This document shows positions 6,570 through 56,539 of a stretch of 64,000 bases of DNA, piece by piece. The DNA comes from an uncultured Alphaproteobacteria bacterium (GTDB taxonomy: Bacteria; Pseudomonadota; Alphaproteobacteria; UBA8366; JADFVY01): positions 2,130 to 66,129 of the forward strand of contig CAMYNJ010000104.1 in assembly GCA_947259795.1 (NCBI GenBank), in the 5' to 3' direction. Below the pieces are notes generated by a model, which saw only the letters and a program-made list of their open reading frames with translations, had not been told where the DNA came from and searched no databases. Made by a program: the position numbers and the translations under genes. Every line of letters starts with the position of its first letter. Position 1 is the stretch's first letter.

Positions 6570-6645
<76 letters not shown>

Positions 6646-6646
6646 T

Positions 6647-9267: not shown

Positions 9268-9290
9268 ACGCTTCCGGGTCCTTCAGGTCT

Positions 9291-12564: not shown

Positions 12565-13386
12565 TTGAATAAGACAGGCATTGTCGGCGTGGGGCGCATG
12601 GGGCGTGCCATGGCCCGGCATCTGATAAAGGGCGGGTTTCCGGTTACCGCCGTCGATGGCAGCCGCGAGGCGGCGGATGCCGCGGCGGCACTGGGCGCGG
12701 AAGTGGTTGCCACGCCGGGGGCGCTGGCCGCCGCCTGCCATACGGTTTTCATAGCGGTGGGTTTCGACGAAGAGGTCGAGGCGGTCTGCCGGGGCGACGA
12801 CGGCATTTTCCAGGGCGCCCGGCCTGGGACAATCGTCGTCGTCAACAGCACGGTATCCGTCGAACTGGTGCGGCGTCTGGCCGATGAGGCCGCGGCGCGG
12901 GGACTGCGTTTTCTCGATATACCCATTGCCCGTGGCCGGCCCGCGGCCGAGGCGGGCACATTGCTGGCGCTGGCCGGTGGCGATGTGGCGGTGCTGGATG
13001 AAGTGCGGCCAATGTTGGAGACGTTCTGTTCCGACATTTCCCATCTCGGTGAGATCGGCCATGGTCAGGTCGCCAAGGCGATAAACAATCTGCTTTTGTG
13101 GATCAACGGCGTCGGGCTGATGGAGGCCGGGCGGCTGGCCGAGGGAACCGGCATCGATTTGGCCGCACTGCGGGACGCCATGCTGATGAGCAGCGGCCGC
13201 TCCTGGGCTCTGGAAAACTGGAACAGCGTCACCTTCACCTGGGCGCTGAAGGACATGCAGCTGTTGCTGGATATGTGCGACCGGACAGGAGGAGCTTTCC
13301 CGCTGACGGGGCTGGTCAAGGAACTGGTAAAGGACGGCCGCGAATCCAAACTGCGCGGCGACGCACCGGGCTGGACAAAGGATTAA
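12565..13386 (+). CDS. NAD(P)-dependent beta-hydroxyacid dehydrogenase (3-hydroxyisobutyrate dehydrogenase family), paralog 1 of 3
   Basis: GIVGVGRMGRAMARHL (Rossmann fold) and GHGQVAKAINNLLL (catalytic Lys motif). It has a TTG start. Paralogs lie at 15699-16529 and 25539-26399. Confidence 0.85.
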   Translation: MNKTGIVGVGRMGRAMARHLIKGGFPVTAVDGSREAADAAAALGAEVVATPGALAAACHTVFIAVGFDEEVEAVCRGDDGIFQGARPGTIVVVNSTVSVELVRRLADEAAARGLRFLDIPIARGRPAAEAGTLLALAGGDVAVLDEVRPMLETFCSDISHLGEIGHGQVAKAINNLLLWINGVGLMEAGRLAEGTGIDLAALRDAMLMSSGRSWALENWNSVTFTWALKDMQLLLDMCDRTGGAFPLTGLVKELVKDGRESKLRGDAPGWTKD

Positions 13387-14357
13387 GGCCAGCGCCAGTG
13401 CGCGATATTGATGACGGTTTCAGGTAGCGCCACCAGTCCCAGAATAAATTCGGTGCTGATTGTCAGCGCCATTGCGCCCAGGAATGACAGCCCGATCCCC
13501 GCGATGACCGAGAAGGTGATGACCTCGTGCTCCCGGTTCAGCATCCAGCTGAAGATGACCCGGAAGACCACCGACAGGCGCTGCACCGGCACGACCACGG
13601 AAACCGGTGCGATGGCCAGCGCCATATAGCGGAATGCCTGGGCCAGGAAGACGAAAACACCCGACGCGGTGAACCATTTCGCGTTGGTCCGGCTCAGCCC
13701 CTTCACATGGGCCAGATTGCCGGGCTGGATCAATAGTCCCACGATGATAACACTGGCTGCGGCATAGGAAATCAGGCCGCCGGCGATGCTGTCGACCATG
13801 CCGCCGCCTGCCAGGGCAATCTGCACCAGCAACGGAGAAACCCCATAGCCGACGGCGCAGACGAGGCCCCAGAAAATTCCCTCGGCATATTTCGGCGTGA
13901 AGTCTACGCTCGATTTCTTCTTCGGCGCCCTGCGCATGCCACGCAGCATGACCGCGGGACCCAGGAAGACGAGGATAATGCCGAAGATCTTCAGCGGCGT
14001 CAGGATGTCGTCGAGAAAAATCAGCGCCAGCACCAGGGCGACCAGCAGGCTCAACTGCTGAAACGGGCTGGAAAGCGCCGCCCCCATACATTTGTTGGCC
14101 CGATAGTTGCCGTAACGCCCAACGATGAAATGAACGATGCCGGCGGTAGAAAACCAAAGCCAGGATTCATCCGTGAAACCGGTCAGCGCGGCGAACCCGC
14201 CCGTGAACAGGCACAGCAGCGCAAATAGCGGCACGCCGATCGGCACCGTAATGGCCAGCCCCTGCAACACCGACCCGGTAATGACCCCGCGCCGCGCCGC
14301 GGCGTTGTTCATGCCGAATGTGACCGCCGAAAGAAGGGCGAGGGCCGCGCCTAGCAT
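13383..14357 (-). CDS. EamA/DMT-superfamily transporter
   Basis: 324 aa with about ten hydrophobic segments and two EamA-like halves. Its stop overlaps the convergent dehydrogenase stop in a TTAA. Confidence 0.85.
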   Translation of the reverse strand: MLGAALALLSAVTFGMNNAAARRGVITGSVLQGLAITVPIGVPLFALLCLFTGGFAALTGFTDESWLWFSTAGIVHFIVGRYGNYRANKCMGAALSSPFQQLSLLVALVLALIFLDDILTPLKIFGIILVFLGPAVMLRGMRRAPKKKSSVDFTPKYAEGIFWGLVCAVGYGVSPLLVQIALAGGGMVDSIAGGLISYAAASVIIVGLLIQPGNLAHVKGLSRTNAKWFTASGVFVFLAQAFRYMALAIAPVSVVVPVQRLSVVFRVIFSWMLNREHEVITFSVIAGIGLSFLGAMALTISTEFILGLVALPETVINIAHWRWP

Positions 14358-14385: not shown

Positions 14386-14991
14386 TCAAGAACCCTTGCC
14401 GCGCAGCAGTTTTCGCACCTGTTCCGGCGTCAGTTCCATTCCCGGCTTGTACTCCGGCGCGTTTTCATACTGTTGCAGGTCGTTGAGGCCGCACTGCTTG
14501 AAAATGCGGTTGGTGGAGGATATCAGGCGGGCCGGCCGGTCGGGGTCCGCATTGAAATGCTGGTGGATGGTGTTCGGCGGCACATAGACTATGTCGCCAG
14601 CCTCCCATTCGAAACGCTTGATCTCTTCCTGCGGCTTCCAGTGATAGTCGTCGGTGATCTCGACATCGCAATCCTGGTGCAGGTCGTAGCCACGCCCCTC
14701 CAGCACATAGAGGCATTCCTCGGCCAGATGCCGGTGCTTGCCGGAACGGCTGCCCGGCGGGATGATCTGCATATAGGCGTCCACCGTTTCCATTCGGGTG
14801 TTCATCGCCTCGTTGATCAGATGTTTCAGCAAACCCTGCCGCGACATCTCCCACGGCATCTCGTCCGGCGTGACGACCTTCTTGCGGCGCGCGTTGCGGG
14901 CCGGCGCCTCGGCCGCGTCGTCCAGCATCTGCTGGTACAGATTTTCGTTCAGCGCCCCGTCGATCCAGGCCTTCGTTTCACCCCACGCCAT
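14386..14991 (-). CDS. Monocupin, type B (gentisate-1,2-dioxygenase-like half), pair 1
   Basis: The internal start is MAWGETKAW. The cupin motifs are PPGSRSGKHRHLAEECLYVLEGRG and GDIVYVPPNTIHQHFN. It starts 2 nt after the preceding cupin's stop. Confidence 0.8.
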   Translation of the reverse strand: MAWGETKAWIDGALNENLYQQMLDDAAEAPARNARRKKVVTPDEMPWEMSRQGLLKHLINEAMNTRMETVDAYMQIIPPGSRSGKHRHLAEECLYVLEGRGYDLHQDCDVEITDDYHWKPQEEIKRFEWEAGDIVYVPPNTIHQHFNADPDRPARLISSTNRIFKQCGLNDLQQYENAPEYKPGMELTPEQVRKLLRGKGS

Positions 14992-14993
14992 GA

Positions 14994-15602
14994 TCAGTAA
15001 CCTTCCTCGGGGTGATTCAAGTCTTCTTCCTCCTCGCGCACGACGAAATCCTCGCCGCCGGGTGCGGGTTCGGTCTGGCGCGGTTCCACCGTTTTCTGGA
15101 ACAGCATGTTCATGAACAGGAACATCGGCTTGGTCTTGATGACCAGCGCGCGGGCCGGTTTGTCGGGCGAGGCGTTGAAATGCTGGTGGACACAATTGTT
15201 GTGGACGATGGCCACGTCGCCGGCCTTCCAGTCATAGCGGACGCCGTCATGGATCTCGTAACCGATGCCGTCGAGGATATAGAAGGCCGCCTCGTTGACA
15301 TGGCCGTGTTTCTGCGACTTGCCGCCAGGCCCGTATTCCTCCAGATGCAAATGGAAGGTCTGGGTGATACCATCCTTCGGTTCCACGTAATGGCGGCTGT
15401 AGGCTTGCGGGCCGTCGACGAACTTGATGTCCTTCGCCTTGCGCACGCGGGGCATGGCACGCAGGCGCTCCAGCTCCTCGGTCAGGTTGTAGGCACCCTG
15501 GATGGAGCGAACGAATATCCGGTCCTTGTTGCTGTGGTAATAGCCTGCCGGGCCTATGGCCGCGCCGTCGTCGGGGCTCTTGCCGTCATCGTCTTTTTTC
15601 AT
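14994..15602 (-). CDS. Monocupin, type A (gentisate-1,2-dioxygenase-like half), pair 1
   Basis: The start is MKKDDDGKSP. The cupin motifs are GPGGKSQKHGHVNEAAFYILDGIG and GDVAIVHNNCVHQHFN. It is a paralog of 18803-19390. Confidence 0.8.
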   Translation of the reverse strand: MKKDDDGKSPDDGAAIGPAGYYHSNKDRIFVRSIQGAYNLTEELERLRAMPRVRKAKDIKFVDGPQAYSRHYVEPKDGITQTFHLHLEEYGPGGKSQKHGHVNEAAFYILDGIGYEIHDGVRYDWKAGDVAIVHNNCVHQHFNASPDKPARALVIKTKPMFLFMNMLFQKTVEPRQTEPAPGGEDFVVREEEEDLNHPEEGY

Positions 15603-15667
15603 TTGCCTCTCTCGCCGGCCGGGTTTTGCTTTCGTGGAATCGATAGCAGAAAGCCCGTCCGCTCTCA

Positions 15668-15692
15668 AGAACAGCGTTCCCCATATGGGAAC
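15668..15692 (+). promoter_or_regulatory. Tripartite operator site 3
   Basis: AGAAC AGC GTTCC CCATATG GGAAC, between the dehydrogenase stop (15699) and the cupin A1 start (15602). Confidence 0.65.
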
Positions 15693-15698
15693 GGGTAA

Positions 15699-16529
15699 TC
15701 AGTCCACCTCCGGTACCGGCAGGCCGCGGGCCTTCTTGAAGGCCGCGATCGCTTGACGGACCGTCTGGCTCAAGGGCATGGCGACTCCCGACGTGGCAGC
15801 CTCGTCCAGCAGCAAATCCATGTCCTTCTCGGCCCACAGGGCGGGGCGTTCGTCGGCCCGCGTCTCCAGCGCCCAGTTGGCGCCGCTGCTGTGGCACAGC
15901 GCTTCACGCAGGGCTTCGCGGTCGACGCCGAGCGCCTCGCCCAGGTCCAGTCCCTCCACATTGGCGACGAGGCAGGTCCATAGCAGCATGTTGTTGATCG
16001 CCTTGGCGGTCTGCCCTGTTCCGGCCGGACCCAGATAATCGACGCGCGTGGAGAATGTGTTCAGCAGGGGATGGCAGCTTTCGACGGTATCCTTGTCGCC
16101 ACCGGCGAAAACCCGCAATTCGCCGGATCCGGCGGCCATTTCCCCGCCGGCAACAGGCGTGTCGATGGCCGTCAGGCCGTGACCGGTAACCCGTTCCGCC
16201 AGCGCCTTCATATAGCCGGGGGCCACGGTCGAGGCGATCAACAGGATCGTCCCGGGCCGGGCACCCGCCACAACGCCACCCTCTCCGAAAATAGCCTGCT
16301 CCACCTGGCTGTCGAAACCGACGATCAGGATGACAGCGTCACATTGTTCCGCCAGCCGAGCGCAGGAATCGGCGGTTTCCAGCCCAATAGCTCTGGCAGC
16401 CTCGATTGCCGCCGGATCCGGGTCAAATCCGCATACGACATAGCCATCGGCCAGGAGATGCCGCGCCATGGGCCGTCCCATCCGCCCGAGGCCGACGATT
16501 CCAAGCTTGGCGATCGTTCTTTCGGGCAT
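15699..16529 (-). CDS. NAD(P)-dependent beta-hydroxyacid dehydrogenase (HIBADH family), paralog 2 of 3
   Basis: LGIVGLGRMGRPMARHL and GTGQTAKAINNMLL. Confidence 0.85.
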   Translation of the reverse strand: MPERTIAKLGIVGLGRMGRPMARHLLADGYVVCGFDPDPAAIEAARAIGLETADSCARLAEQCDAVILIVGFDSQVEQAIFGEGGVVAGARPGTILLIASTVAPGYMKALAERVTGHGLTAIDTPVAGGEMAAGSGELRVFAGGDKDTVESCHPLLNTFSTRVDYLGPAGTGQTAKAINNMLLWTCLVANVEGLDLGEALGVDREALREALCHSSGANWALETRADERPALWAEKDMDLLLDEAATSGVAMPLSQTVRQAIAAFKKARGLPVPEVD

Positions 16530-16586
16530 CTCGATCCCTTATTATTTGCGTTCTGATGAGTATGGCACGCGAAATCGCCGATTTCC

Positions 16587-16611
16587 GGAATGCCGTTCCG
16601 CCAACCGGAAC
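16587..16611 (+). promoter_or_regulatory. Tripartite operator site 4
   Basis: GGAAT GCC GTTCC GCCAACC GGAAC, in the divergent region between the dehydrogenase (start 16529) and the tctA-tctB fusion (start 16694). Confidence 0.65.
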
Positions 16612-16693
16612 ATGACTATCGCACCGCTGGCCAATCTGGACCATATTGTCGAATATACCAAGTCCGGCAAGGGCGGGAAGACAGGGAGGAATA

Positions 16694-18751
16694 ATGGACG
16701 GCGGCATGCTCGACGCGGCGCTTCAGGCGCTGTCCGCGATGATGGAATTCGAGCGCCTGGGCTATCTGTTCGCCGGTGTCATCGTTGGATTGCTGTTTGG
16801 TATTCTGCCCGGTGTGGGCGGGATCGCCGGCATGGCACTGCTGTTGCCCTTCACATTCGGCATGGATGCCTATTCGGCTTTCGCGTTCCTGCTGGGGCTG
16901 GGCGCCGTGACCTCGACCGGCGATACCATCCCGGCCGTGCTGTTCGGCGTGCCAGGCACATCGGCTTCCCAAGCGACCGTAATCGACGGTCATGCCATGG
17001 CCAAGAAGGGCGAAGCGGGCAGGGCGCTAAGCGCCGCCTATACGGCGTCGCTGCTGGGTGGACTGTTCGGCGCGCTGCTGCTGGCGCTGACGATCCCGGT
17101 GCTGCGGCCAATCATGCTCTATATCGGTTCGCCTGAGCTGCTGGCCTGCGCCGTGTTCGGCATATCGATGGTCGCGGTGCTGTCGGGCAACGCGCCCCTG
17201 CGCGGGCTGTCGATTGCCGGGTTCGGCATCACGCTGTCGATGATCGGCGGCGATCCACAGACCGGGACCCAGCGCTGGTCGCTCGACACGCTCTATCTCT
17301 ATGACGGATTGCCGTTATTGCCGCTGGCTCTTGGCATTTTCGCGCTTCCCGAACTCTGTGACCTTGCGATCAAGCGCACGTCGATCGCCAGCGAAGCGAA
17401 ATACGACGTGAAGAGCGGCATGCTGAAGGGCGCGCAAGATACCCTTCAAAACTGGTGGCTGGTGATGCGATGTGGCGGCCTTGGCGCGGCCATCGGCGCG
17501 ATTCCGGGGCTCGGTTCGGCGGTGGTCGACTGGTTCGCCTACGGCCATGCGATCCGTACCGAAAAGGGCGCGACATCGACTTTCGGCAGCGGTGACGTGC
17601 GCGGCGTAATCGCGCCGGAAAGCGCCAACAACGCGAAAGAGGGTGGGGCGCTGGTTCCCACCGTGGCCTTCGGCGTGCCGGGCAGCGCCAGCATGGCAAT
17701 CCTGCTGGGCGCCTTCATGATCCACGGGCTGCAGCCCGGTCCGCGCATGCTGATCGAGAACCTGAATGTTACCTATGCGATGGTCTGGTCCATTGCGCTG
17801 GCCAATATTCTTGGCGCGGGACTCTGCTTCCTGTTCAGCGGCCAATTCGCCAAGATCGCGACTCTGCGCTATACGCTGATCCTGCCGGCGGTCATGACCG
17901 TACTCTATGTTGGCGCCTTCCAGGGCACCCGCGACTGGGGCGATCTGTACGCCCTGCTGTTCTTCGGCGTGCTGGGCTGGACCATGAAGCGGCTGCGCTG
18001 GCCGCGGCCGCCGCTGATCCTGGGCTTCGTACTGGGCGCCATCATCGAGCGCTACATGTTCATTTCCGTGGCGCGTTACGACTGGGAATGGCTTTACCGG
18101 CCCGCCGTCGCGATTTTGCTGGCCATGGCGGTACTGGGCGTGATTCGCCCGCTGGTCGGCGAATATCTGGCCAATCGCAGGGCCGGCCGCGTCACGACCC
18201 TGATCGGCCGCCCGGCCTTCCATCCGTCCGGTCTGTTCCATGTCGCCCTGATTGCGTTGATCCTGGCCATGATCGCCGAGACCGGAAGCTGGGAAGACGA
18301 GGCGAAAATCGCGCCGCTGATCGTCGCCTGGTTCGCCGTGGGCTGTGCCATCGTCAGCCTGTTCAACCAGGTATTCCGGGTTCCCGCTATCGCTCGGGCC
18401 GCGCAGGAGGCGGCCGGATCGGACCAACCGCGCTCGATCCATATGGATCTGGTGGCCGACGACACATGGCTGACGCCTGGATTGATCGTCCGCCGCGCGG
18501 CGCTCTTTTTCAGCTGGCTGGTCGCCTTCATGGCATCAATGGCGGTCATAGGCATATTGCCGACTGCGTTCCTGTTCGTGGCTGCCTACATGCGGCTGGA
18601 AAACAGGGAACCCTGGCGGCTGGTGCTGGTGATGGCCGGCGGTATCGCCCTGTTCGTCTATGTGGTTTTCGACCGCTTCCTGACGATCCCGTGGCCTGCC
18701 ACCTTGCTGGGCAAGGTGATCCCGGCCTTGAAGTTCATACCAACGATATGA
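16694..18751 (+). CDS. tctA: TTT large permease TctA fused to a C-terminal TctB-like small-subunit domain
   Basis: The N-terminal ~500 aa align with the two other TctA proteins in the window (GILPGVGGIAGMALLLPFTFGMD, PESANNAKEGGALVPTVAFGVPGSA). The C-terminal ~190 aa align with the stand-alone TctB genes (SWEDEAKIAPLIVAW..., RRAALFFSWLVAFMASMAVIGILPTAFLFVAAYMRLENREPWRLVL). RBS GGGAGGA precedes ATG 16694. Confidence 0.85.
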   Translation: MDGGMLDAALQALSAMMEFERLGYLFAGVIVGLLFGILPGVGGIAGMALLLPFTFGMDAYSAFAFLLGLGAVTSTGDTIPAVLFGVPGTSASQATVIDGHAMAKKGEAGRALSAAYTASLLGGLFGALLLALTIPVLRPIMLYIGSPELLACAVFGISMVAVLSGNAPLRGLSIAGFGITLSMIGGDPQTGTQRWSLDTLYLYDGLPLLPLALGIFALPELCDLAIKRTSIASEAKYDVKSGMLKGAQDTLQNWWLVMRCGGLGAAIGAIPGLGSAVVDWFAYGHAIRTEKGATSTFGSGDVRGVIAPESANNAKEGGALVPTVAFGVPGSASMAILLGAFMIHGLQPGPRMLIENLNVTYAMVWSIALANILGAGLCFLFSGQFAKIATLRYTLILPAVMTVLYVGAFQGTRDWGDLYALLFFGVLGWTMKRLRWPRPPLILGFVLGAIIERYMFISVARYDWEWLYRPAVAILLAMAVLGVIRPLVGEYLANRRAGRVTTLIGRPAFHPSGLFHVALIALILAMIAETGSWEDEAKIAPLIVAWFAVGCAIVSLFNQVFRVPAIARAAQEAAGSDQPRSIHMDLVADDTWLTPGLIVRRAALFFSWLVAFMASMAVIGILPTAFLFVAAYMRLENREPWRLVLVMAGGIALFVYVVFDRFLTIPWPATLLGKVIPALKFIPTI

Positions 18752-18802
18752 CAGACGAATTTGTGGCTGGCCCACGACAACAAAGGAGAATGGAGATTTC
18801 AT

Positions 18803-19390
18803 ATGTCGAATAAACCCGATAATCCCGAAGGCATAGGCCACAACAGTGAGACTGGCCAGAAGGAGGAAGTTGTCTGGGAACGCTGGACCAAAAAGCGGAC
18901 CTTCGTCCGTGGGCTGGAAGGCACATATGGCGAGCTATACAACGAGCTTTACTCGCAGCCGCGCGTCTACCATACCAGCGATCTGAATTGGAAAGGCGGG
19001 CCACAGAACTTCGGCAAGAAGGTCATCAATCCGCAGGCCTGCCGCGTCGCCCAGTCCATCGAAACCCATATCGACGCCTTTGCGCCCGGTGGCTATGGCC
19101 AGAAGCACGGCCATATGAACAGCGCTGTGTTCTTCGTCCTGAAAGGCAAGGGGCACGACATCCATGACGGTCGGCGGCTCGACTGGGAGGCCGGCGACGC
19201 GCTGATCGTGGAAAATGCCTGCGTCCATCAGCATCTGTCCGACGACACGGATGACGAGACGATCGTTCTGGTGATGAAAGCCAAGCCGCTCTTCCTGTTC
19301 ATGCACATGATCTTCCAGAAGGTGGTCGAATATCCGCCCACGGAACCAGCGCCAGGCCAGGACGGCTATGAGCCGCCGGCTTCCCTGTAA
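18803..19390 (+). CDS. Monocupin, type A, pair 2
   Basis: The start is MSNKPDNPEG. The cupin motifs are APGGYGQKHGHMNSAVFFVLKGKG and GDALIVENACVHQHLS. The tail KPLFLFMHMIFQKVVEYPPTEPAPG matches cupin A1. Confidence 0.8.
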   Translation: MSNKPDNPEGIGHNSETGQKEEVVWERWTKKRTFVRGLEGTYGELYNELYSQPRVYHTSDLNWKGGPQNFGKKVINPQACRVAQSIETHIDAFAPGGYGQKHGHMNSAVFFVLKGKGHDIHDGRRLDWEAGDALIVENACVHQHLSDDTDDETIVLVMKAKPLFLFMHMIFQKVVEYPPTEPAPGQDGYEPPASL

Positions 19391-19424
19391 CGCGCCAGAA
19401 CCAAGATCCGGAGGAATGAGAGAA

Positions 19425-20015
19425 ATGAACGATCTGAAACCCTTTGTCGACGCGACCGAGCGTGAACGCGCGCGCTCCGGCGACACTTACGTCAATTTCT
19501 ACAACGAGGCGCTGGAAGCCTCGAAGATGTTCCGCAAGGAATATCAGGACCGCATGAATGTCGTGAAATGGCATGAGATGCCCATGGAACGTTCCGCGGA
19601 TGGGCTGATAAAGCACATCATCAACGAGCGCATGGACACCAAGGAATGCTGCATCGACATCTACATGCAATTCATCCAGCAGAACGGCGCGACCGGGACC
19701 AGCCGGCATCTGTCGGAAGAGGTCGCCTTCGTTATCGAAGGAACCGGCCACGACCTGCATTACGATGTGCGGTTCGATTGCGGCGACGAATTTGTCTGGG
19801 AATGGGAAACCACGCCTAAAAAATACGAATGGGGCCCGGGCGACTTTGTCTATATCCCGCCCTATTGCGCCCACAAGCGCTTCAACACCGGCAGTGAGGA
19901 AGCGCGTGTCGTGGTCGTCAACAGCCGCATTATGAAGTCGATTGGCCTCGACTGGTTCGACCAGCTGGAGCCGGCCGAAGGGTATGAAGACCTGTGGGTC
20001 CCGCCCGCAGACTGA
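19425..20015 (+). CDS. Monocupin, type B, pair 2
   Basis: The start is MNDLKPF, with GGAGGA 10 nt upstream and ATG 19416 as an alternative. The cupin motifs are GTSRHLSEEVAFVIEGTG and GDFVYIPPYCAHKRFN. The HxH is reduced to a single His (SRH). Confidence 0.8.
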   Translation: MNDLKPFVDATERERARSGDTYVNFYNEALEASKMFRKEYQDRMNVVKWHEMPMERSADGLIKHIINERMDTKECCIDIYMQFIQQNGATGTSRHLSEEVAFVIEGTGHDLHYDVRFDCGDEFVWEWETTPKKYEWGPGDFVYIPPYCAHKRFNTGSEEARVVVVNSRIMKSIGLDWFDQLEPAEGYEDLWVPPAD

Positions 20016-20093: not shown

Positions 20094-21308
20094 ATGAGAG
20101 TGTTAGTGAAAACTTTGTTGCTCGGCATCGCGCTGACGCTGGCGGGCACGGCGAACGCAAGCGAATTCTATAAGGGCAAGACGATCACCTATATCGTATC
20201 GACCAGCCCAGGCGGCGGATATGATACCTATGCCAGGTTGATCGCCAAATATCTTGGGAAACACCTGGAAGCCAAGGTTCTGGTGAAAAACCTGCCCGGC
20301 GCCGGCCATATTGTCGGCACCAATACGCTGGCCGCCTCCAAGCCCGACGGGCTGACCATCGGCACCTTCAATACCGGACTGATCTACGCGCAGATCCTGA
20401 AGCGCGAAGGGGTGCAGTTCGACTTGCGTGCCTTCGAATGGATCGGGAAGGCCGCGGCCGACCCTCGCGCCCTGGTGCTGGGCGCAGAGAGCGGCATGAA
20501 AACCTATGAGGACCTGGCAGCGGCCGACAAGCCGGTTAAATTCGCGACCTCCGGCGTGGGGTCGGCATCCTATACCGATACCCAGCTCATCCGTTCGGCG
20601 CTGGACCTGAAGATTGAGGTTGTGCCCGGCTTCAACGGCAACGAGGGCGAGCTTGCCATGCTGCGCGGCGAGATTGGCGCACAGGTCGGTTCCATGAGTT
20701 CCCTGCAGTCCTTCGTTGATAACGGTTATGGCGTCTTTGCGGTGGCGATCGGCGGCGATGCGAACGGTGTTCCGCAGGCCGCCGGCAAGGCGACCACAGA
20801 AAAAGGCAAATCCATCATTGCGCTGGTGCAGGCCATGTCAGAGCTTGGCCGGCTGACCGCGGCGCCCCCGGGCACCCCGGCGGAGCGGGTCGCCGACCTG
20901 CGCGCGGCCTACGAAAAGGTGCTGACCGATCCGCAATTGCTGGCCGAGGCCGAGAAACTGGGCATTCCGATCCAGCCTTCCTACGGCGAGGCTGTCGCGG
21001 GCCTGGTCGGCGATGCCCTGAATCAGAGCCCGGCGACGGTGGAAATCATCGCAGCCGCGGTCAATGTGGAAATCAAGCTGGTGACGGTAAAGACCGCACT
21101 GCTGGACCTTTCCCCGGACTTCAAGAAGATCAAGTTCGCCTCAGGCGACGCCACCATCAAGGCGAAGATCTCGGGCTCGCGCACGGCGATCACGGTCAAT
21201 GGCGAGGAGGCCAAGCGTAAAAATCTGAAGGTCGGCATGGTCTGCGAGATTTCCTACGATCCGGAACATGAAGACAACGAACCGAAGGAAATGGCCTGCG
21301 AAGGCTGA
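20094..21308 (+). CDS. tctC: TctC/Bug-family substrate-binding protein with an extra ~80-aa C-terminal domain
   Basis: It has a signal peptide and EFYKGKTITYIVSTSPGGGYDTYARLIAKYLGKHL...NLPGAGH. At 404 aa it is longer than the other TctC copies here (317 and 340 aa). The extension is VTVKTALLDLSPDFKKIKFASGDATIKAKISGSRTAITVNGEEAKRKNLKVGMVCEISYDPEHEDNEPKEMACEG. Confidence 0.85.
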   Translation: MRVLVKTLLLGIALTLAGTANASEFYKGKTITYIVSTSPGGGYDTYARLIAKYLGKHLEAKVLVKNLPGAGHIVGTNTLAASKPDGLTIGTFNTGLIYAQILKREGVQFDLRAFEWIGKAAADPRALVLGAESGMKTYEDLAAADKPVKFATSGVGSASYTDTQLIRSALDLKIEVVPGFNGNEGELAMLRGEIGAQVGSMSSLQSFVDNGYGVFAVAIGGDANGVPQAAGKATTEKGKSIIALVQAMSELGRLTAAPPGTPAERVADLRAAYEKVLTDPQLLAEAEKLGIPIQPSYGEAVAGLVGDALNQSPATVEIIAAAVNVEIKLVTVKTALLDLSPDFKKIKFASGDATIKAKISGSRTAITVNGEEAKRKNLKVGMVCEISYDPEHEDNEPKEMACEG

Positions 21309-21314
21309 CCAAAT

Positions 21315-21349
21315 GGCCGCCCGGGTGAAGTAACTCCGCCCGGGCGGCC
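21315..21349 (+). promoter_or_regulatory. Intercistronic GC-rich hairpin between tctC and tctA
   Basis: GGCCGCCCGGG - 13-nt loop - CCCGGGCGGCC. No clean U-tract follows (CTGTAATATTTT). Confidence 0.5.
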
Positions 21350-21381
21350 CTGTAATATTTTCAAACGGATCGGTTGTAATC

Positions 21382-22890
21382 ATGCAGATCGAACAGGTTC
21401 TGTCGTCCCTGCTGTCCGTCGTCGGGTCGCCCACATTAATGGGTCTGATCATCCTGGCGGTGCCCATCGGGATGTTTTTCGGGGCGATCCCCGGGCTGGG
21501 CGGCAAATTGGGCATCGTATTGCTTATTCCCTTCGTCTTCGGGATGGACCCGCTGGCAGGCGCCGTGTTTCTGATGGCGATGCATGCCGTGGTCCATACC
21601 GGCGGCTCGATCCCCAGCATCCTCTTCGGCGTGCCGGGAACCGGCCCGGACGCCGCCACGATCGTCGATGGCTTCCCCATGACCAAGCGGGGCGAGGCGG
21701 GGCGCGCGCTGGGCGCCAGTTTGGGCGCGTCGGGATTCGGCGGCGTCGTCGGCGGGGTCTTCCTGGCCCTCATGCTGCCGCTGCTGCGGCCGGTGGTGCT
21801 CGCTTTCAGCCCGGCGGAATTCTTCCTGCTGGCGATCTTCGGCATCACTTTCATCGCCACTCTGTCGGGCAAGAGCCTGCGTAAGGGCCTGTTGGTCGGC
21901 ATGCTCGGCCTGATGCTTTCCTTCATCGCCCTGGACCCGCATACCGGCGCCCAGCGCTATACCTTCGACATGCTGTTCCTGTGGGACGGCGTGGATGTAA
22001 TCACCGCCGTCCTCGGCATTTTCGCGATCCCCGAGATGATCGCGCTGGGCGCCAAGGGAGGTTCGATCGCCCAGGTAACTGGCAAGGCAGCGCGCTATAA
22101 CCTGCGCGAGGTGATCGACGGGATCCTCGATGTCTTCCGGCATCTCGGCCTGTCGATTCGAACCTCGCTTATCGGGGCCGGCATCGGCATGGTGCCGGGC
22201 CTGGGCGGCGACGCCGCAAGTTGGATCTGCTATGGCCATGCGGTGCAATCCTCGAAGACCCCCGAGCGTTTCGGCAAGGGTGCGGTGGAAGGCGTGATCG
22301 CGCCGGAGACCGCCAACAATTCCAAGGAGGGTGGCGCACTGCTGCCCACGCTGTTCTTCGGCGTGCCGGGATCTTCGGGCATGGCGATCATGCTGGGTGC
22401 CTTCGTCATGCTGGGGGTGAAGCCCGGCCCGATGATGGCGCTGACCGGCATGGATTTCGTCTGGACGTTGATCTGGACGCTCTGTATCGCCAATATTCTG
22501 GCGGTGGCGATGTTCCTGGCCTGCGCCCCGGCCTTCGGCATGCTGACCTTCGTGCGCGGGTCGCTGATCATTCCGTTCGTGCTGACACTTGCGTTCCTGG
22601 GTTCGTTCCTCAGCCATTCGGCCTGGGAGAATATCGTCCTGCTGTGCCTGCTCGGCACGCTGGGCTATTTCCTGAAGAAATATGGCTGGCCCCGTCCACC
22701 CTTCGTAATCGGCCTCGTGCTGGGGCCGATCGCCGAAGATTCGCTGCACAAGGCGCTGGCGATATGGGGCCCGACCTTCTTCCTGCGGCCGCAGTCGCTG
22801 ATCATGGTCGCGCTGATCGTCGCCAGCCTGGCCGTCTATTTCTGGCGTCGCCGCAAACGTTCGTCGGTGGAGGTCAACTATGATATTTAG
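21382..22890 (+). CDS. tctA: TTT large permease TctA
   Basis: 502 aa, polytopic, with GAIPGLGGKLGIVLLIPFVFGMDP and PETANNSKEGGALLPTLFFGVPGSS. Confidence 0.9.
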   Translation: MQIEQVLSSLLSVVGSPTLMGLIILAVPIGMFFGAIPGLGGKLGIVLLIPFVFGMDPLAGAVFLMAMHAVVHTGGSIPSILFGVPGTGPDAATIVDGFPMTKRGEAGRALGASLGASGFGGVVGGVFLALMLPLLRPVVLAFSPAEFFLLAIFGITFIATLSGKSLRKGLLVGMLGLMLSFIALDPHTGAQRYTFDMLFLWDGVDVITAVLGIFAIPEMIALGAKGGSIAQVTGKAARYNLREVIDGILDVFRHLGLSIRTSLIGAGIGMVPGLGGDAASWICYGHAVQSSKTPERFGKGAVEGVIAPETANNSKEGGALLPTLFFGVPGSSGMAIMLGAFVMLGVKPGPMMALTGMDFVWTLIWTLCIANILAVAMFLACAPAFGMLTFVRGSLIIPFVLTLAFLGSFLSHSAWENIVLLCLLGTLGYFLKKYGWPRPPFVIGLVLGPIAEDSLHKALAIWGPTFFLRPQSLIMVALIVASLAVYFWRRRKRSSVEVNYDI

Positions 22891-23329
22891 CGGACGCGCC
22901 ATCACGTCGCTGGTCATGCTGGCGATATTCGCCGCCATGACGGTCATCGGCATGAGCTATCCCGAAAAGGCCCGGATGATGCCGTTGCTGGTCGGCATCC
23001 CGGGCGCGATCATGGCGCTGGCCCAACTGATCCGGGATATCCGTTTCCCCGAGGTCGAAACCCCGACCGAAGAGACCGCGAGCGAGTTTCGCCGCGAGAT
23101 CAAAATGTTCTCCTGGCTGGCGCTGTTTTTCGTCGGTGTTATCGGGTTCGGTTTTGTCTACGCGGCGCCGCCGCTGGTTTTCGCATTCATGCGTTTCGGG
23201 CAAAAGGAAAGCTGGGTCGTCGCGCTGATCGGCGGCGTCGGCACCTGGGCAATCCTTTATGGCATGTTCACCAGGATGCTGGAGCTGTTCCTCTTCGAGG
23301 GACTGCTGCTGCCGCTCCTGATCGGCTAG
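22880..23329 (+). CDS. tctB: TTT small permease TctB
   Basis: 149 aa with four hydrophobic segments. It overlaps the tctA stop by 11 nt. Gene order here is C-A-B. Confidence 0.75.
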   Translation: MIFSGRAITSLVMLAIFAAMTVIGMSYPEKARMMPLLVGIPGAIMALAQLIRDIRFPEVETPTEETASEFRREIKMFSWLALFFVGVIGFGFVYAAPPLVFAFMRFGQKESWVVALIGGVGTWAILYGMFTRMLELFLFEGLLLPLLIG

Positions 23330-27564: not shown

Positions 27565-27973
27565 GGTCACGCCCTTGGTCATGGTCGTGGTCGTGATGAT
27601 GACGCTTCGCCTCGCGGCGCGCCGGTTCTCCATGCCCGTCCATGAAGGCCTCCATGGCGGCGCGAAAAATATCGGATTCGGGTGGAAGCTGGGCAGCGAG
27701 CATGCCGGCCAGCCGTGCGAATACGACAGCCTGGCCCGCGATGGCATCGGCCCTCGTTCCCTCTGCCGCGGACGCCGTATCCTTCATTGCCCGTACCATC
27801 GTGTCGCGAAACAGGGCGGACATATAGGTGCCGCGACCCTCCGGTTCGGTCAGATCGTGGGGGACTGGCTGGATTTCCTGCGGTGGGACGACCCCATAGC
27901 TCAAGGCAAACCCGGCGAATCGCCGGAAAATCAAATCGTCGAACGCCGTATCTTCTTCTAAATCACCACACAT
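27554..27973 (-). CDS. Hypothetical protein with a His/Asp-rich C-terminal tail
   Basis: The likely start is MCGDLEEDTAFDD at 27973, but the start is uncertain. The protein ends ...FMDGHGEPARREAKRHHHDHDHDQGRDHDH*. No family was recognised. Confidence 0.45.
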   Translation of the reverse strand: MCGDLEEDTAFDDLIFRRFAGFALSYGVVPPQEIQPVPHDLTEPEGRGTYMSALFRDTMVRAMKDTASAAEGTRADAIAGQAVVFARLAGMLAAQLPPESDIFRAAMEAFMDGHGEPARREAKRHHHDHDHDQGRDHDH

Positions 27974-30549: not shown

Positions 30550-31671
30550 TCACGCCGCCGATCTGGGCGGCAGGTCGGGCAATTCCGCCTCATAGGCCGC
30601 TTCCATCCTCGGCTCCAGCCCGTGTTTGGCAAGCGAGTCGGCAAACATGGTACGGATCAGCGGCTTTTCGTCGGCATAGTCGATCTGGTCGCCGCCGATT
30701 CGCATGCTGATCCAGGCCTTGGGTACGCCCTGTGCGTTGCGGACCGACACAGTCTCGTGCTTGAAGGCCAGATAGCGCGCCGGCGTTGTGCCGGTGTTGA
30801 AATGCTGGTGGAACCACATGTTCGGCGGCACGATCATGCTGCCGACCTTCCATTCGTATCGCTTCGGTTCCTCGCCCTCCGGCCACATCAGGCTGTAGCC
30901 CTCGCCACCGAGAATGATGACATGGGCGCCGGGGCCGTGCCGGTGGCATTTCTTGTAGGTGCCCACGGGGAACTGCGAGATGTGGCTGTTCATTGAACCC
31001 TTGGCCATGGCGAAACGGATATGGCCGCCGCCGGCCCCGCGTTCCTTGGCATCGATCAGCGGCAGGTTTACCGCGTCGGCGACGAAATTGGTTTCCAGTA
31101 ACAGGCCCTTCTGTTCGCCCTTGTTGGCGAAATAGTCGGCTTCGCCGTTGAACCGGTTCTTGAAATCGAAGGACGAGTTGAAAATGAAGTCGGTGTCTTC
31201 GTACAAATTCATCACAGGCGGGCAGTTGGTGACCGCGACATAGCGCACCGGCTCCTGTCCGGACCCGTTGAAATGCTGGTGCCAGGCATTCAGCGGAATG
31301 GCGAAGATCGCGCCGGGTCCCCATTCGAACGTGATTTTTGCGCCGGCGTCGTTCCAGACCGCGGTGGAGCCGCGGCCCGAGAGGACCATGATCATTTCCT
31401 CGAAAATCTGCCTTTGCGGCGCCAGTTTGCCGCCCTTAGGGATTTCGCAGACATAGCAATCGTTTGAGGTGCGCGAAGCATCGTGATTGATGAACACCGC
31501 GCTGCCGCCGCGCCTCGCCCAGGGCTTCAATTCGACCGTATTGAGGTCGGGGACGTAATGGGCGCTGATGATGTCCAGGCCTTCGCTCGCCACCCAGCGC
31601 GTATAGGGCGTTTCCTTTTCGGTCGCGAATTTGCTGGCCATCTTGTCTGAAACGATCGCGTCTTTAGCCAT
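30550..31671 (-). CDS. Bicupin protein 1 (HQHFN cupin family; type sometimes labelled ethanolamine ammonia-lyase-activating protein)
   Basis: The start MAKDAIVSDK is preceded by GGAGAA, and the 501-aa ORF-track extension is rejected. The N-terminal barrel lacks HxH (APQRQIFEEMIMVLSGRG ... AWHQHFN). The C-terminal barrel has KKCHRHGPGAHVIILGGEG ... MWFHQHFN. Confidence 0.8.
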   Translation of the reverse strand: MAKDAIVSDKMASKFATEKETPYTRWVASEGLDIISAHYVPDLNTVELKPWARRGGSAVFINHDASRTSNDCYVCEIPKGGKLAPQRQIFEEMIMVLSGRGSTAVWNDAGAKITFEWGPGAIFAIPLNAWHQHFNGSGQEPVRYVAVTNCPPVMNLYEDTDFIFNSSFDFKNRFNGEADYFANKGEQKGLLLETNFVADAVNLPLIDAKERGAGGGHIRFAMAKGSMNSHISQFPVGTYKKCHRHGPGAHVIILGGEGYSLMWPEGEEPKRYEWKVGSMIVPPNMWFHQHFNTGTTPARYLAFKHETVSVRNAQGVPKAWISMRIGGDQIDYADEKPLIRTMFADSLAKHGLEPRMEAAYEAELPDLPPRSAA

Positions 31672-31761
31672 ATGGTTTCTCCATTCTTTACCCATCCGCC
31701 GGGCACCCGCGGCCCGATCAACAGTTGACGCAGAGTATTGCCACACTAAACTCTCGTCAAT

Positions 31762-37596: not shown

Positions 37597-39093
37597 CTAT
37601 TCTCCGGGGAACAGCAGCGATTTGATGACCACGGGGACGGCGCCCGTCGCACGCAGCACTTCGCCGATGTCGATGAAATCGAACTCGCTCAGCTCGATCC
37701 CGTCGATGGAGATCAACGGGTTTTCCAGGCCTTCCTCCTGGCGGCAATGGATGCCGACCAGCCCGCCGATATCGCCGTCCACCACCAGGATCAGCGGGTG
37801 GCCACGGTCCAGTATCGGGCGCATGCCGGCGATCACGCCGCGGCTCAACCCTCTTAGCCGGTGGAACATGGCGGAGCCCTGCCAGGGGATAGTAACGGCC
37901 ACGGCTTCCTCGCCATGGGCCAGATCCATGCGGGTCAATGCCGTACCGACCTTGGCGGCGACGACGGTCTCGTCGATCTCGTCGCCGGAAAGATCGAGGT
38001 CCGGCGCGATAACCGGGACGTTCCGCACGGGTAAAACGTCCGGCGGATCCAGGAAGATCGTGCTGCCACTGACCTGGACCGTGTATTGCGACGCGCCGAC
38101 CACGGTGGCGCGGATGCCCTGATCGGCCATGGCGATCCGGACGCCCTTGCCTTCGACGAGCGCTCGCACGGCGTCGGCCAGGTCGGGGCCGAGATCGCGA
38201 AACCCGTCGGCTTCCCGCCCGTAAATGTATTCCGACACGCCGCCGGAAAAAGTTACGGAGGCAGGCTCGGCGGCGTTCAACGGCGGCAGGCGCAGCCAGT
38301 CGCCCAGTTCGGCGCCGCCGGCAGCTTCCATAATACGGCCGGCCATGCGCCCGGCAATGGCGCGCCTGGCCTCCGGCTCGCAGAGATCGCCGATATTCAA
38401 CGGCAGCCCCAACTCGTCCAGATAGCGCCGGCCGAAAGGTTCGATCCGCTCGATCCGGCTGTTGCCGTCGAACACCAGGAGGCGTGCGCCGGCCTCCACC
38501 GCCGTCAAGGATTCGGCCTCGCCGCCGCTGCACAACGCGATCTTCGTGGTGCCGCCGCCGATGTCGATATTCATGACCGACCCCCCGCCGTCCGCCGACA
38601 GGGCTAGCGCGCCGGACCCGTGGGCAGCCATCAGTGTTTCCAGCCCGTCGCCGGCGCTGACCGCGACGAATTTGCCCGTCTGCGCCGAGAACAGGTCGCC
38701 AATCGCCCGAGCATTGGCCCGCCGCACGGCGACCCCGGTCAGGATCAGGGCCCCTGTGTCGATATCGTTGGGACTCAATCCAGCGGCTTTATATTGCCGG
38801 TCGATGAAGTCGCCCAGCGCCTCGGCGTCGATATCCTCGCCGCCGCGATAGGGGGTCAACAGGATATCGGACTGATGCAGGATGCTGCGTTCCGCCACCA
38901 CATAGCGGGTGTCCAGGCGCTCCAGCAGGATTTTCGAGAACAACAGATGCGAGGTCGAAGAGCCGATATCGACGCCGACGCTGGTCAACTCGATCTCGTC
39001 TTCCTCGATGAGGCTCCGGCTGGCGTTACTGAAGAAGATCCGCCCGCCTTCGCTCGCCTCGTCGGTCACGCTTATGGGCTTGGCCGCGGTCAT
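37597..39093 (-). CDS. EutA-like ASKHA-fold ATPase (paralog 2, no His-rich tails)
   Basis: The start MTAAKPISV has its ATG overlapping the bicupin 2 stop as ATGA (39090-39093). Motifs are SVGVDIGSSTSHLLFSKI, DTGALILTGVA, MNIDIGGGTTKIAL, IRATVVGASQYTVQVSGST and VPVVIKSLLF. Confidence 0.8.
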   Translation of the reverse strand: MTAAKPISVTDEASEGGRIFFSNASRSLIEEDEIELTSVGVDIGSSTSHLLFSKILLERLDTRYVVAERSILHQSDILLTPYRGGEDIDAEALGDFIDRQYKAAGLSPNDIDTGALILTGVAVRRANARAIGDLFSAQTGKFVAVSAGDGLETLMAAHGSGALALSADGGGSVMNIDIGGGTTKIALCSGGEAESLTAVEAGARLLVFDGNSRIERIEPFGRRYLDELGLPLNIGDLCEPEARRAIAGRMAGRIMEAAGGAELGDWLRLPPLNAAEPASVTFSGGVSEYIYGREADGFRDLGPDLADAVRALVEGKGVRIAMADQGIRATVVGASQYTVQVSGSTIFLDPPDVLPVRNVPVIAPDLDLSGDEIDETVVAAKVGTALTRMDLAHGEEAVAVTIPWQGSAMFHRLRGLSRGVIAGMRPILDRGHPLILVVDGDIGGLVGIHCRQEEGLENPLISIDGIELSEFDFIDIGEVLRATGAVPVVIKSLLFPGE

Positions 39094-40298
39094 TCGCCGT
39101 CGGGTTTTTCGTACAGCGACGGGTCCATGCGGCTTTTGCCCTGGTTCAGCGCGATGCAGCCTTCGAACTCCTCGCGCAGATACGGGTCCTCCATCCAATA
39201 GGGAATCGAGGTGCCGCCCTCCGTGACGTCCATCGCGGTATAGTCGATCTGCTTTTCGCCGGGCCGCAGGCCGGTGACCAGGCTGGGATGGTTGGGCCCG
39301 AACCAGGCGGTCAGCCGGAACGGCTCGCCCGACGTGTTGAAATGTTGGTGATACCAGCGCGCGCCGCCCGGCGCCGCGCTGACCATGCCGACGGGTTCAT
39401 AGTCGACGCGCTGCACCTTGTCGCCGTGGCCGTCCTGCCACGGGGTGACGCCACATTCTTCCGGCCAGGTATAAGTATAACCCTTGCCCTTTACACAGAT
39501 CAGGATGGCGGCCGAGGTATGCGCATGCGCCTTGGAATAGCGTCCCGTCTCGTGCTGGCCGATCCACAGATAGAACTTGTTGCCGGTCATGAAGGGTTCC
39601 ACCCGGCGGTAGCCCGGCGAGCGGCGGTTATCCAGCGGCAGTTCGCAATTCATCACGTCGGGCACCAAATTGGTGCGCCGCATGGCCAGGCCGCGGATCG
39701 GATCAGGCTCCAGATCCTCGACCGGCTTGTAGAAGTCCTCCGACGAGGAATAGCGGTCGGTGAAATTGTAGGGGCAGTCAAAGATGAAATTGGTGTTGCC
39801 GACCAGGTTCATCAGGTTCGGCGCCGTCGTGCCGGCCAGTAGCAGGGCCGGGCTGGAGGTCGCATTGACGATGCGGTGGTAGGCATTGACGGGAATCGAA
39901 AACAGCGATCCCTGCTGCCACTCGAAAACATGTTTCCTGCCGCCTTCTTCAAGCCAGACTTCGGTAGAGCCGCGGCCTTCGACGACCAGGAAGATTTCCT
40001 CATAGATGTGTTTTTCGACGTTCAGCGCGCCGGCGCCCGGCACCTCCACGACGTAAGAGCCCCATTTACCCTCGGTGCCGTACAGCTGGATGTAGTGGCC
40101 GCGTCCGCCCATGCGGGGCCAGTCGTGAAGCGGCAAATTCTGCACCTTGCTGATGCCTATATCGCGATAGACCGGGATGCCTTCGGCTTCCATGAAACGG
40201 TCGTAATCCATCTGCGGTTGGCCAAACTTGCCGAACCCGGCGCGTTCGCCCGCCGTCGGTTCATGCCAATGGACCGTGCCTTCCAGGTCATGCGGCAT
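39090..40298 (-). CDS. Bicupin protein 2 (HQHFN cupin family)
   Basis: 402 aa. The N-terminal barrel is NVEKHIYEEIFLVVEGRG ... AYHRIVN. The C-terminal barrel is SKAHAHTSAAILICVKGKG ... RWYHQHFN. It is a paralog of 30550-31671. Confidence 0.8.
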   Translation of the reverse strand: MPHDLEGTVHWHEPTAGERAGFGKFGQPQMDYDRFMEAEGIPVYRDIGISKVQNLPLHDWPRMGGRGHYIQLYGTEGKWGSYVVEVPGAGALNVEKHIYEEIFLVVEGRGSTEVWLEEGGRKHVFEWQQGSLFSIPVNAYHRIVNATSSPALLLAGTTAPNLMNLVGNTNFIFDCPYNFTDRYSSSEDFYKPVEDLEPDPIRGLAMRRTNLVPDVMNCELPLDNRRSPGYRRVEPFMTGNKFYLWIGQHETGRYSKAHAHTSAAILICVKGKGYTYTWPEECGVTPWQDGHGDKVQRVDYEPVGMVSAAPGGARWYHQHFNTSGEPFRLTAWFGPNHPSLVTGLRPGEKQIDYTAMDVTEGGTSIPYWMEDPYLREEFEGCIALNQGKSRMDPSLYEKPDGE

Positions 40299-45601: not shown

Positions 45602-45626
45602 AGAACAGCGTTCCGCAATGAGGAAC
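45602..45626 (+). promoter_or_regulatory. Tripartite operator site 9 (in front of / overlapping the IclR gene start)
   Basis: AGAAC AGC GTTCC GCAATGA GGAAC. It contains the first in-frame ATG (45618) and lies 25 nt upstream of the alternative ATG at 45651. Confidence 0.65.
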
Positions 45627-56535: not shown

Positions 56536-56539
56536 TGCA

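Follow-up and report, generated by a model that had tools for sequence, protein, structure and literature searches.

The stretch analysed here, hereafter the window, comprises 64,000 nucleotides (nt) of contig CAMYNJ010000104.1 from an uncultured Alphaproteobacteria bacterium, and carries two pairs of adjacent genes encoding short, single-barrel cupin proteins (monocupins), designated A1-B1 and A2-B2. Two longer genes elsewhere in the window, Bi1 and Bi2, encode two-barrel cupins (bicupins), and all of these genes stand behind a palindromic operator of what looks like one large regulon, described below. The four monocupin open reading frames lie at the coordinates and on the strands given in the original prediction, and each passes the Pfam Cupin_2 gathering threshold of 27.2 bits (33.7-48.6 bits) with both cupin motifs present:

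14994..15602, minus strand: A1, A-type monocupin, the putative catalytic subunit; 202 amino acids (aa), Cupin_2 E 6.5e-13
14386..14991, minus strand: B1, B-type monocupin, the putative partner subunit; 201 aa, Cupin_2 E 1e-12
18803..19390, plus strand: A2, paralogue of A1; 195 aa, 45% identity to A1
19425..20015, plus strand: B2, paralogue of B1; 196 aa, 38.6% identity to B1

The predicted resemblance of A1 to A2, and of B1 to B2, is borne out by pairwise blastp, in which the identities above extend over 163 aa (E 5.6e-51) and 166 aa (E 2e-39), respectively; A1 and B1 align at 33% identity over 114 aa (E 1.9e-19). The second-motif signature said to unite the monocupins with the two bicupins, H[QK][HR][FL][NS], is confined in a six-frame translation of the window to these six proteins, plus one match outside any coding frame. 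A1 presents a candidate three-His site (H99/H101/H139) accompanied by H141, N143 and E104, and B1 a canonical HxHxxxE...H site (H86/H88/E92/H143); a long insert separates the two cupin motifs of B1. Among the finer motif details of the original prediction, the degenerate first motif (SRH) and AHKRFN second motif of B2 are as described, as is the VHQHLS of A2, but the Glu expected after the HxH of A2 is Ser (HGHMNS); three His are retained there (HGH...VHQH), and the Ser is conserved across the A2 family. The degeneracy of B2 is likewise found, identically, in its orthologues at two related loci (L084, L085). Within the first pair, the two bases 'TC' separate the A1 stop codon (TGA, 14996-14994) from the B1 start codon (ATG at 14991), and the Shine-Dalgarno ribosome-binding site of B1, GAGGAAGG, lies inside the 3' end of the A1 coding sequence. 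Within the second, 34 nt separate the A2 stop from the B2 start, and a GGAGGA site precedes B2.

Relatives of A1 were counted by a degenerate-pattern scan, taking one genome per species, and 83 loci (given L numbers here) were fetched for comparison of gene neighbourhoods. Counted as confirmed relatives, the A1-type family occurs in at least 591 species-level genomes, and homologues 75-93% identical to A1 are found in Alpha-, Beta- and Gammaproteobacteria, in four Pseudonocardia species, in a Streptomyces and in Terriglobia bins. A B1-type gene accompanies A in 75 of the 83 fetched loci and the other eight end less than 470 nt past A, such that B is present in every locus having room for it (75/75), nearly always downstream and on the same strand; in one exception B precedes A (L075), and in another it comes after a second A-like gene (L067). 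Between the stop codon of A and the start codon of B, 57 of these 75 loci have an interval of -1, +1 or +2 nt, and the pairwise identities of A and B co-vary over loci (r = 0.63). One genome carries the A-B bicistron by itself, no other member of the regulon being close by, which identifies A-B as the minimal module. Relatives of A2 are 73-93% identical, and Labrenzia sp. OB1 and other assemblies (L084-L086) share the gene order A2-B2-TctC(-TctA-TctB). In Streptomyces and Pseudonocardia (L031, L038, L044, L046, L059), and in Terriglobia (L035, L042), A and B show 80-87% and 73-81% identity, respectively, to the window proteins, whereas the TctA and TctC proteins that adjoin A-B in relatives of other phyla reach only 31-47%; set against the 75-93% identity of A-B, this difference suggests constraint on the pair that is unusually strong for small cupins. 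An exact-sequence look-up of A1 returned no record, and tblastn of A1 against 72,556 plasmids no match at 1e-20; given the plasmid search, the family appears to be chromosomal. A third A-like gene (~185 aa, 65-69% identical to A1) is present in several Burkholderiales loci (L043, L048, L055, L067, L068, L076, L082), where operon forms include A-B-A'-Bi1, so subunit composition may vary between loci. Two bins labelled Klebsiella pneumoniae (L016, L017) carry the locus at 83-84% identity, and are almost certainly mis-binned or mislabelled contigs.

Single-chain versions of the pair also exist. Searched exhaustively with phmmer, a set of 1.84 billion cluster representatives yielded single chains of 325-390 aa with two matched stretches, among them proteins which, by blastp against the window proteins, join an A-like N-terminal half to a B-like C-terminal half (P0125, P0129, P0138, P0155, P0172, P0177, P0197, P0211), and one in the reverse order, B-like to A-like (P0173). 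Their N-terminal halves are 40-55% identical to A1 and their C-terminal halves 44-52% identical to B1; for P0125 the values are 55% and 52%, and for P0129, 48% and 49%. In a neighbour-joining tree of 58 barrels (162 columns, Poisson distances, 500 bootstraps), each fusion half is nearer to its expected split type in 99-100% of replicates, with bootstrap values of 58% for a clade of A barrels and fused A halves, and 71-80% for the B clade. These fusions from metagenomes and genomes (P0125, P0129, P0138, P0155, and P0173 in reverse), which share the ligand motifs of A and B, are the true fused counterparts of the pair; they differ from A/B in being one chain, in a linker of about 60 residues and in the other carboxylate transporters alongside, and are themselves uncharacterised. 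An AlphaFold2 model of P0125, built from an alignment of the eight A-B fusions, has a predicted TM-score (pTM) of 0.76, with the barrels mostly at 85-95 by predicted local distance difference test (pLDDT) and the linker (residues 136-197) disordered. A Foldseek search of the Protein Data Bank (PDB) with this model returned only bicupins, in a nearly flat ranking (TM 0.47-0.59) led by oxalate decarboxylase (OxdC; E 1e-16, TM ~0.57), with gentisate 1,2-dioxygenase (GDO), quercetinase and seed storage proteins close behind. Because A and B are strictly adjacent and translationally coupled, and because fusions occur in both orders and are confidently modelled with two barrels, the two proteins very probably assemble into a bicupin-like heteromer encoded by two genes.

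The metal-ligand positions of the two proteins are under different constraints. In A, residues H99, H101, E104, H139, H141 and N143 are invariant in all 91 family sequences. In B, H86, E91, E92 and H145 are invariant, and in six Burkholderiales loci H88 is replaced by Gln together with replacement of H143 by Ser, Thr or Cys; four of these six loci carry the third A-like gene. As the site of A is indispensable and that of B optional, A is probably the catalytic subunit, an asymmetry which matches that of bicupin dioxygenases, where one barrel is catalytic and the other vestigial. B proteins lacking these ligands nevertheless remain about 73% conserved in sequence; together with the conserved degenerate site of B2, this suggests that B is kept for a role other than independent catalysis.

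Single-sequence searches of the PDB gave remote matches only, of which the best was the gentisate dioxygenase of Silicibacter pomeroyi (3bu7; E ~1e-7). With a profile of 16 A-family sequences, 3bu7 was matched at 4e-17 and salicylate 1,2-dioxygenase (SDO) at 4e-8, and generic Cupin_2 proteins and mannose-6-phosphate isomerase (1e-3) ranked below both. The nearest solved family is thus that of ring-cleaving gentisate and salicylate dioxygenases, and not a sugar isomerase, which had been named beforehand as an outcome that would count against the idea. With the class III bicupins, that is gentisate, salicylate and 1-hydroxy-2-naphthoate 1,2-dioxygenases (3bu7, 2phd/3nst, 2d40), A/B shares the three-His HxH...H site and the motif-2 H-x-H-x-N; the ligands H99, H101, H139 and H141 of A align with GDO positions (HxH in motif 1, HxH in motif 2). 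Two barrels, when A and B are combined, and an aromatic-acid catabolic gene context are further likenesses. The differences are that A/B consists of two chains of ~200 aa rather than one of 350-390 aa, that metal sites are possible in both barrels, and that B carries its insert; separate reading frames of 195-202 aa depart from the single-chain bicupin of ~350-390 aa, and the pair together reproduces its architecture. Judged by profiles and alignments, A/B is GDO-type in fold and metal site, and lies outside the GDO family proper.

Other characterised cupins are more distant. The known ring-cleaving dioxygenases of the cupin fold are either single-chain bicupins or homo-oligomeric monocupins. 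Among the latter, 5-nitrosalicylate 1,2-dioxygenase (8ch4, 208 aa), a GDO-related homo-oligomer of one gene product, is similar in size to A and B and illustrates that one barrel can suffice for ring fission, but matches A1 only marginally (E 0.04). The manganese bicupins, including OxdC (1j58, 2v09), are the top Foldseek matches of the fusion, and their metal site resembles the HxHxxxE...H of B1; in contrast, OxdC gave no match to A/B in PDB sequence searches, the structural ranking is unspecific, all bicupins being similar, and the HxHxxE spacing of A differs from the manganese-bicupin HxHxxxE...H, so that the likeness to OxdC is one of fold alone. The hydroquinone 1,2-dioxygenases PnpCD/HapCD are heteromeric, ring-cleaving and have one cupin-fold subunit, yet the two subunits, small and large, are not cupin paralogues of each other, and PDB searches revealed no sequence similarity to A/B. 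A PnpCD-type identity was accordingly dropped, as was that of a dimethylsulfoniopropionate (DMSP) lyase (DddQ-like tandem cupins), which also lacked a match in those searches. We found no description in the full-text literature of an obligate two-gene heteromeric cupin built from paralogous barrels; on the sequence comparisons, A/B is an uncharacterised and very highly conserved split form within the GDO-related cupin superfamily.

The original prediction also held that the monocupin pairs mirror the fused bicupins of the window. These bicupins, and the ATPase genes beside them, are arranged as follows:

30550..31689, minus strand: Bi1, bicupin of a separate lineage; N barrel QRQ, C barrel HRH...H; operator at 31770
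31810-33552: EutA-like ATPase gene, divergent from Bi1
37597-39198: second EutA-like ATPase gene, after Bi2
39090..40298, minus strand: Bi2, bicupin, 30% identical to Bi1; operator at 40369

Their N barrels lack an HxH, as predicted (QRQ in Bi1, EKH in Bi2). Profile-profile comparison with HHalign in local mode scored A against B at 138, B against the Bi1 N barrel at 122, A against the Bi1 N and C barrels at 83 and 75, and B against the Bi1 C barrel at 60; within the bicupins, N against N scored 231 and C against C 132. In the 58-barrel tree the Bi1 and Bi2 barrels form their own clade (70% bootstrap), and B is the nearer type for the Bi N barrels in 88-99% of replicates and for the C barrels in 17-74%. 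With the N barrels B-like, the C barrels ambiguous and both in a clade of their own, the monocupin pairs do not appear to be split copies of Bi1 or Bi2, and the proposed mirroring, if read as barrel-for-barrel orthology, is not supported. Rather, A/B and Bi1/Bi2 belong to one superfamily, and on this phylogeny the fused equivalents of A/B fall in a different bicupin family. About 25 Burkholderiales loci have an operon of the form (ThDP-HIBADH-)A-B-Bi1, with a thiamine diphosphate (ThDP) enzyme and a Bi1 71-81% identical to that of the window, which suggests that pair and bicupin act in the same pathway and are not substitutes. Bi1 itself matched no PDB sequence at E < 0.01.

Each bicupin is paired with a EutA-like (ASKHA) ATPase of ~500-580 aa behind an identical operator, GGTCCGTATAGCGGAAC, and the pairing recurs in Loktanella and Labrenzia (L001 3354-6158; L084 17626-20579). 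EutA is the reactivase of ethanolamine ammonia-lyase. No link between EutA-like proteins and cupins was found in the full-text literature; the ATPase may serve as a chaperone or reactivase of the bicupin.

The operator shared by these genes has the form GTTCC-N7-GGAAC, and is matched without mismatch five times in the window against 0.35 expected, or 13 times against 2.07 expected when up to one mismatch is allowed. Its sites, and the candidate regulator, are:

10731 and 11292: operator sites near decarboxylase and TctC genes
15676..15692: operator site GTTCCCCATATGGGAAC, within the 96 nt that precede A1
16595..16611: operator site GTTCCGCCAACCGGAAC, within the promoter region from which the HIBADH-A1-B1-EamA and TctAB-A2-B2-TctCAB operons diverge
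30127: operator site by the Rieske genes
31770 and 40369: identical copies of GGTCCGTATAGCGGAAC, before Bi1 and Bi2
43718: operator site between molybdenum-hydroxylase and ThDP-enzyme genes
45610-45626: operator site overlapping the start region of the IclR gene
45618..46475, plus strand: IclR-family regulator (Pfam HTH_IclR and IclR_C)
55329: operator site before the ADH-CobW-LigK-LigJ operon (ADH, alcohol dehydrogenase)

The sites at 15676 and 16595 place the shared operator before both monocupin pairs, as had been claimed, and its presence at both pairs and both bicupins upholds, computationally, the grouping of six related barrels in one regulon. With at least 10 promoter regions over 45 kb carrying the palindrome, one of them at the regulator gene, this looks like one large, autoregulated regulon, in which the IclR protein probably binds the shared palindrome.

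The genes flanking the two pairs, and others linked to the same operator, include:

6440-8509: flavin adenine dinucleotide (FAD)-dependent aromatic-ring hydroxylase
13383..14357, minus strand: EamA-family permease (Pfam EamA), last gene of the A1-B1 operon
15699..16529, minus strand: HIBADH-like (beta-hydroxyacid) dehydrogenase upstream of A1 (Pfam NAD_binding_2 and NAD_binding_11)
16646..18751, plus strand: TctA-TctB fusion permease of the tripartite tricarboxylate transporter (TTT) type, first gene of the A2-B2 operon (TctA E 3e-127, plus TctB)
20094..23329, plus strand: TctC, TctA and TctB downstream of B2 (Pfam), in the order seen in L085
28728-30089: LigXa-like Rieske oxygenase
30131-30526: Rieske ferredoxin
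46348-47505: Fer2-FAD-NAD reductase

By Pfam, the HIBADH-like dehydrogenase and TTT permease that had been noted beside the pairs are both present, the HIBADH-like gene and the TctA-TctB fusion lying between the pairs. An EamA permease gene directly follows B in 33 related loci, and the position of HIBADH upstream of A is kept in L004, L005 and L007, as well as in the Burkholderiales ThDP-HIBADH-A-B-Bi1 operons. The TctA-TctB fusion is 701 aa long, and two other TTT systems of the window encode TctA and TctB separately. Several TTT systems, a molybdenum hydroxylase, two ThDP enzymes and three HIBADH-like dehydrogenases also belong to the operator-linked set, as do six genes resembling non-oxidative aromatic-acid decarboxylases (8506-10304, 47533-48525, 50259-51242, 52939-54397) of three unrelated families, namely the LigW/gamma-resorcylate, class II aldolase and 4,5-dihydroxyphthalate-decarboxylase types; two genes match 4,5-dihydroxyphthalate decarboxylase (PDB 9jp7) at E 2e-84 and 1.5e-33. 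Six decarboxylase-like genes and at least four TTT systems suggest substrates with several carboxyl groups. LigJ (E 1e-156 to PDB 6dxq) and LigK (above its curated cut-off) lie within 57577-59293. Judged by these similarities, the surroundings are an aromatic-carboxylate catabolic set.

Among the annotated genes of the 64-kb window there is no dioxygenase of LigAB, VOC or intradiol type, which leaves the cupins as its sole ring-opening candidates. Nor were LigAB, LigC, LigI or LigU found in the 64 kb, despite genuine LigK and LigJ, so that non-orthologous enzymes must provide the upstream half of the 4-oxalomesaconate route. An Amidohydro_2 gene (9291-10304) considered as LigI was rejected, being LigW/gamma-resorcylate-decarboxylase-like instead, and the zinc-dependent ADH was rejected as a pathway marker, being only a relative of generic polyol dehydrogenases. 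In Rhodobacterales the conserved gene order is Bi2-EutA-like-TTT, a divergent Rieske ferredoxin, A-B-EamA and LigJ-LigK-CobW-ADH. Genes of presumptive metal supply are also present in the regulon, comprising a CobW/COG0523 GTPase between ADH and LigK (56465-57577) and an ArsP_1-like permease (26956-27747), and a Labrenzia locus (L084 14993-15709) encodes a NicO-like Ni/Co permease near a Rieske oxygenase, with one gene between.

We propose that A and B would be subunits, alpha and beta respectively, of a 'split bicupin', a heteromeric metalloenzyme in which their barrels pack like the two barrels of a one-chain bicupin. The catalytic site would lie in A, where H99, H101 and H139 are joined by the second-motif His141 as in gentisate/salicylate-type dioxygenases, and B would be an obligatory partner barrel whose own site of three His and one Glu is optional: B1 has it intact, B2 has it in degenerate form, and some lineages have lost it. 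Two paralogous enzymes, A1B1 and A2B2, would then be encoded in the window, each in an operon with carboxylate uptake genes (the EamA permease and TTT, respectively), and both operons and the two bicupins would be under common GTTCC-N7-GGAAC control, probably via IclR. The likeliest job of such enzymes would be O2-dependent cleavage of the ring of hydroxylated aromatic (poly)carboxylates, made by the hydroxylases and decarboxylases of the regulon, with products that feed LigJ and LigK. We lean slightly towards this explanation as a whole; that A/B is a gentisate-dioxygenase-like ring-cleaving enzyme is, on the sequence comparisons, plausible and unproven, with the balance about even.

Several findings weigh against split-bicupin ring cleavage. 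The complex, the metal, the dioxygenase chemistry and the substrate are all what we infer, the binding of A to B from operon and Rosetta-stone arguments. The two-gene bicupin of the original prediction is well supported by the 75/75 loci and the fusions, but membership of the GDO family is not: A and B score 13-21 bits against a cut-off of 442 for TIGR02272 (gentisate 1,2-dioxygenase), and 22-34 bits against 650 for MabB (NF049978, 5-aminosalicylate dioxygenase), although these are the top NCBIfam models for A/B despite such scores. Arg127 of salicylate dioxygenase, which binds the substrate carboxylate, lies six residues past the second His of motif 1; HMMER aligns it with Phe107 of A1, a residue that does not vary within the A family, and with a Leu of B1. 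With the carboxylate Arg of GDO and SDO replaced, substrate recognition in A/B must differ. The complete HxHxxxE...H site of B1 would permit a second metal, and the notion that B is purely structural would thus fail for some pairs. Foldseek's ranking of the fusion model is uninformative on function, some fused relatives adjoin CitMHS or ABC carboxylate transporters that do not look aromatic, and in one genome, as noted above, the A-B pair is on its own. Lastly, CobW and the NicO-like permease hint at Ni or Co, in place of Fe, in some of the cupins.

Much of this would suit a heteromeric A/B without oxygenase activity, such as a metal-dependent isomerase, tautomerase or decarboxylase of an aliphatic or ring-opened (tri)carboxylate; examples are the 4-oxalomesaconate tautomerase/isomerase step needed by LigJ (the role of LigU/GalD), or an oxalate-decarboxylase-like reaction. 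The gene context in fact fits equally a ring cleavage toward 4-oxalomesaconate and a cupin isomerase supplying LigJ: no LigU/GalD homologue was seen in the window though LigJ and LigK are present, and A-B-EamA lies a few kb from LigJ-LigK in Rhodobacterales. The oxalate decarboxylases at the head of the structural matches, the Mn-cupin character of the B1 site, the TTT, CitMHS and ABC carboxylate transporters flanking family members, and CobW as a pointer to a non-Fe metal are consistent with this also. However, the solved proteins nearest by profile are ring-cleaving dioxygenases and not isomerases or OxdC, which is absent from the sequence matches altogether; the invariant A site, with three His and the motif-2 HxH, has the GDO/SDO pattern; the flatness of the Foldseek ranking undercuts its first place; and in Burkholderiales A-B sits with ThDP, HIBADH and Bi1 rather than with LigJ-LigK. 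We therefore regard a non-oxygenase as rather unlikely, if the strongest of the competing accounts. It is less likely still, and in our view improbable, that A and B are independent homo-oligomeric monocupins in the manner of 5-nitrosalicylate 1,2-dioxygenase, left adjacent by tandem duplication and acting on successive or alternative substrates. The two proteins are each other's closest relatives (HHalign 138), A1 and B1 both have complete metal sites, a solved monocupin dioxygenase does match A1, if weakly, and some loci have a third A-like copy; yet independence sits poorly with adjacency in 75/75 loci at spacings of 1-2 nt, with fusions in both orders and a confident two-barrel model, and with the loss of B ligands at ~73% sequence conservation alongside the conserved degenerate site of B2.

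A further account would make A/B the terminal oxygenase of an electron-dependent system, a cupin mono-oxygenase or demethylase fed by the small Rieske ferredoxin (and the Fer2-FAD-NAD reductase). A Rieske protein of 109-131 aa is encoded divergently beside A-B in about 20 alphaproteobacterial loci where no LigXa-like oxygenase is adjacent, and in Burkholderiales the genes of the reductase and the IclR regulator precede A-B-Bi1 at a distance of a few kb. In the window, however, the ferredoxin adjoins the LigXa-like Rieske oxygenase, its expected partner, and many loci have A-B without a Rieske protein; moreover, XylT-type ferredoxins re-reduce oxidised Fe(III) dioxygenases, and the ferredoxin might equally do so here. 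We consider such a system quite unlikely. More ambitiously, A/B might represent an unrecognised class of heteromeric cupin oxygenase, joined in some lineages by the third A-like subunit and Bi1 and serviced by the Rieske ferredoxin, the EutA-like ATPases and the CobW-type metallochaperone. It would open the ring on a non-orthologous route by which hydroxylated aromatic polycarboxylates reach 4-oxalomesaconate, LigJ and LigK; that route would be widespread among Alpha-, Beta- and Gammaproteobacteria of marine and fresh waters, and among Pseudonocardia. This extension is speculative, and we hold it doubtful.

A/B is the sole candidate for ring opening in a large, operator-linked aromatic-carboxylate regulon ending in LigJ/LigK, and knowing what it acts on could uncover a new way into the 4-oxalomesaconate pathway. 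A heteromeric cupin-oxygenase route, if true, would bear on the turnover of carboxyl-rich aromatic dissolved organic matter. Irrespective of chemistry, the split, fused and reverse-fused forms found in nature would allow the divergence between catalytic and vestigial bicupin barrels to be studied.

A smaller observation concerns the ends of the A orthologues. Some have His-rich N termini, such as MHDDHNHPP and MEPDPDHHHHHDD (L001 9995-10627, L028 2164-2811), and the C terminus of nearly all is a conserved acidic tail, EEE(D/E)xNHP(E/K)(E/G)GY (14994-15040 in the window); these may be metal-capture or docking elements.

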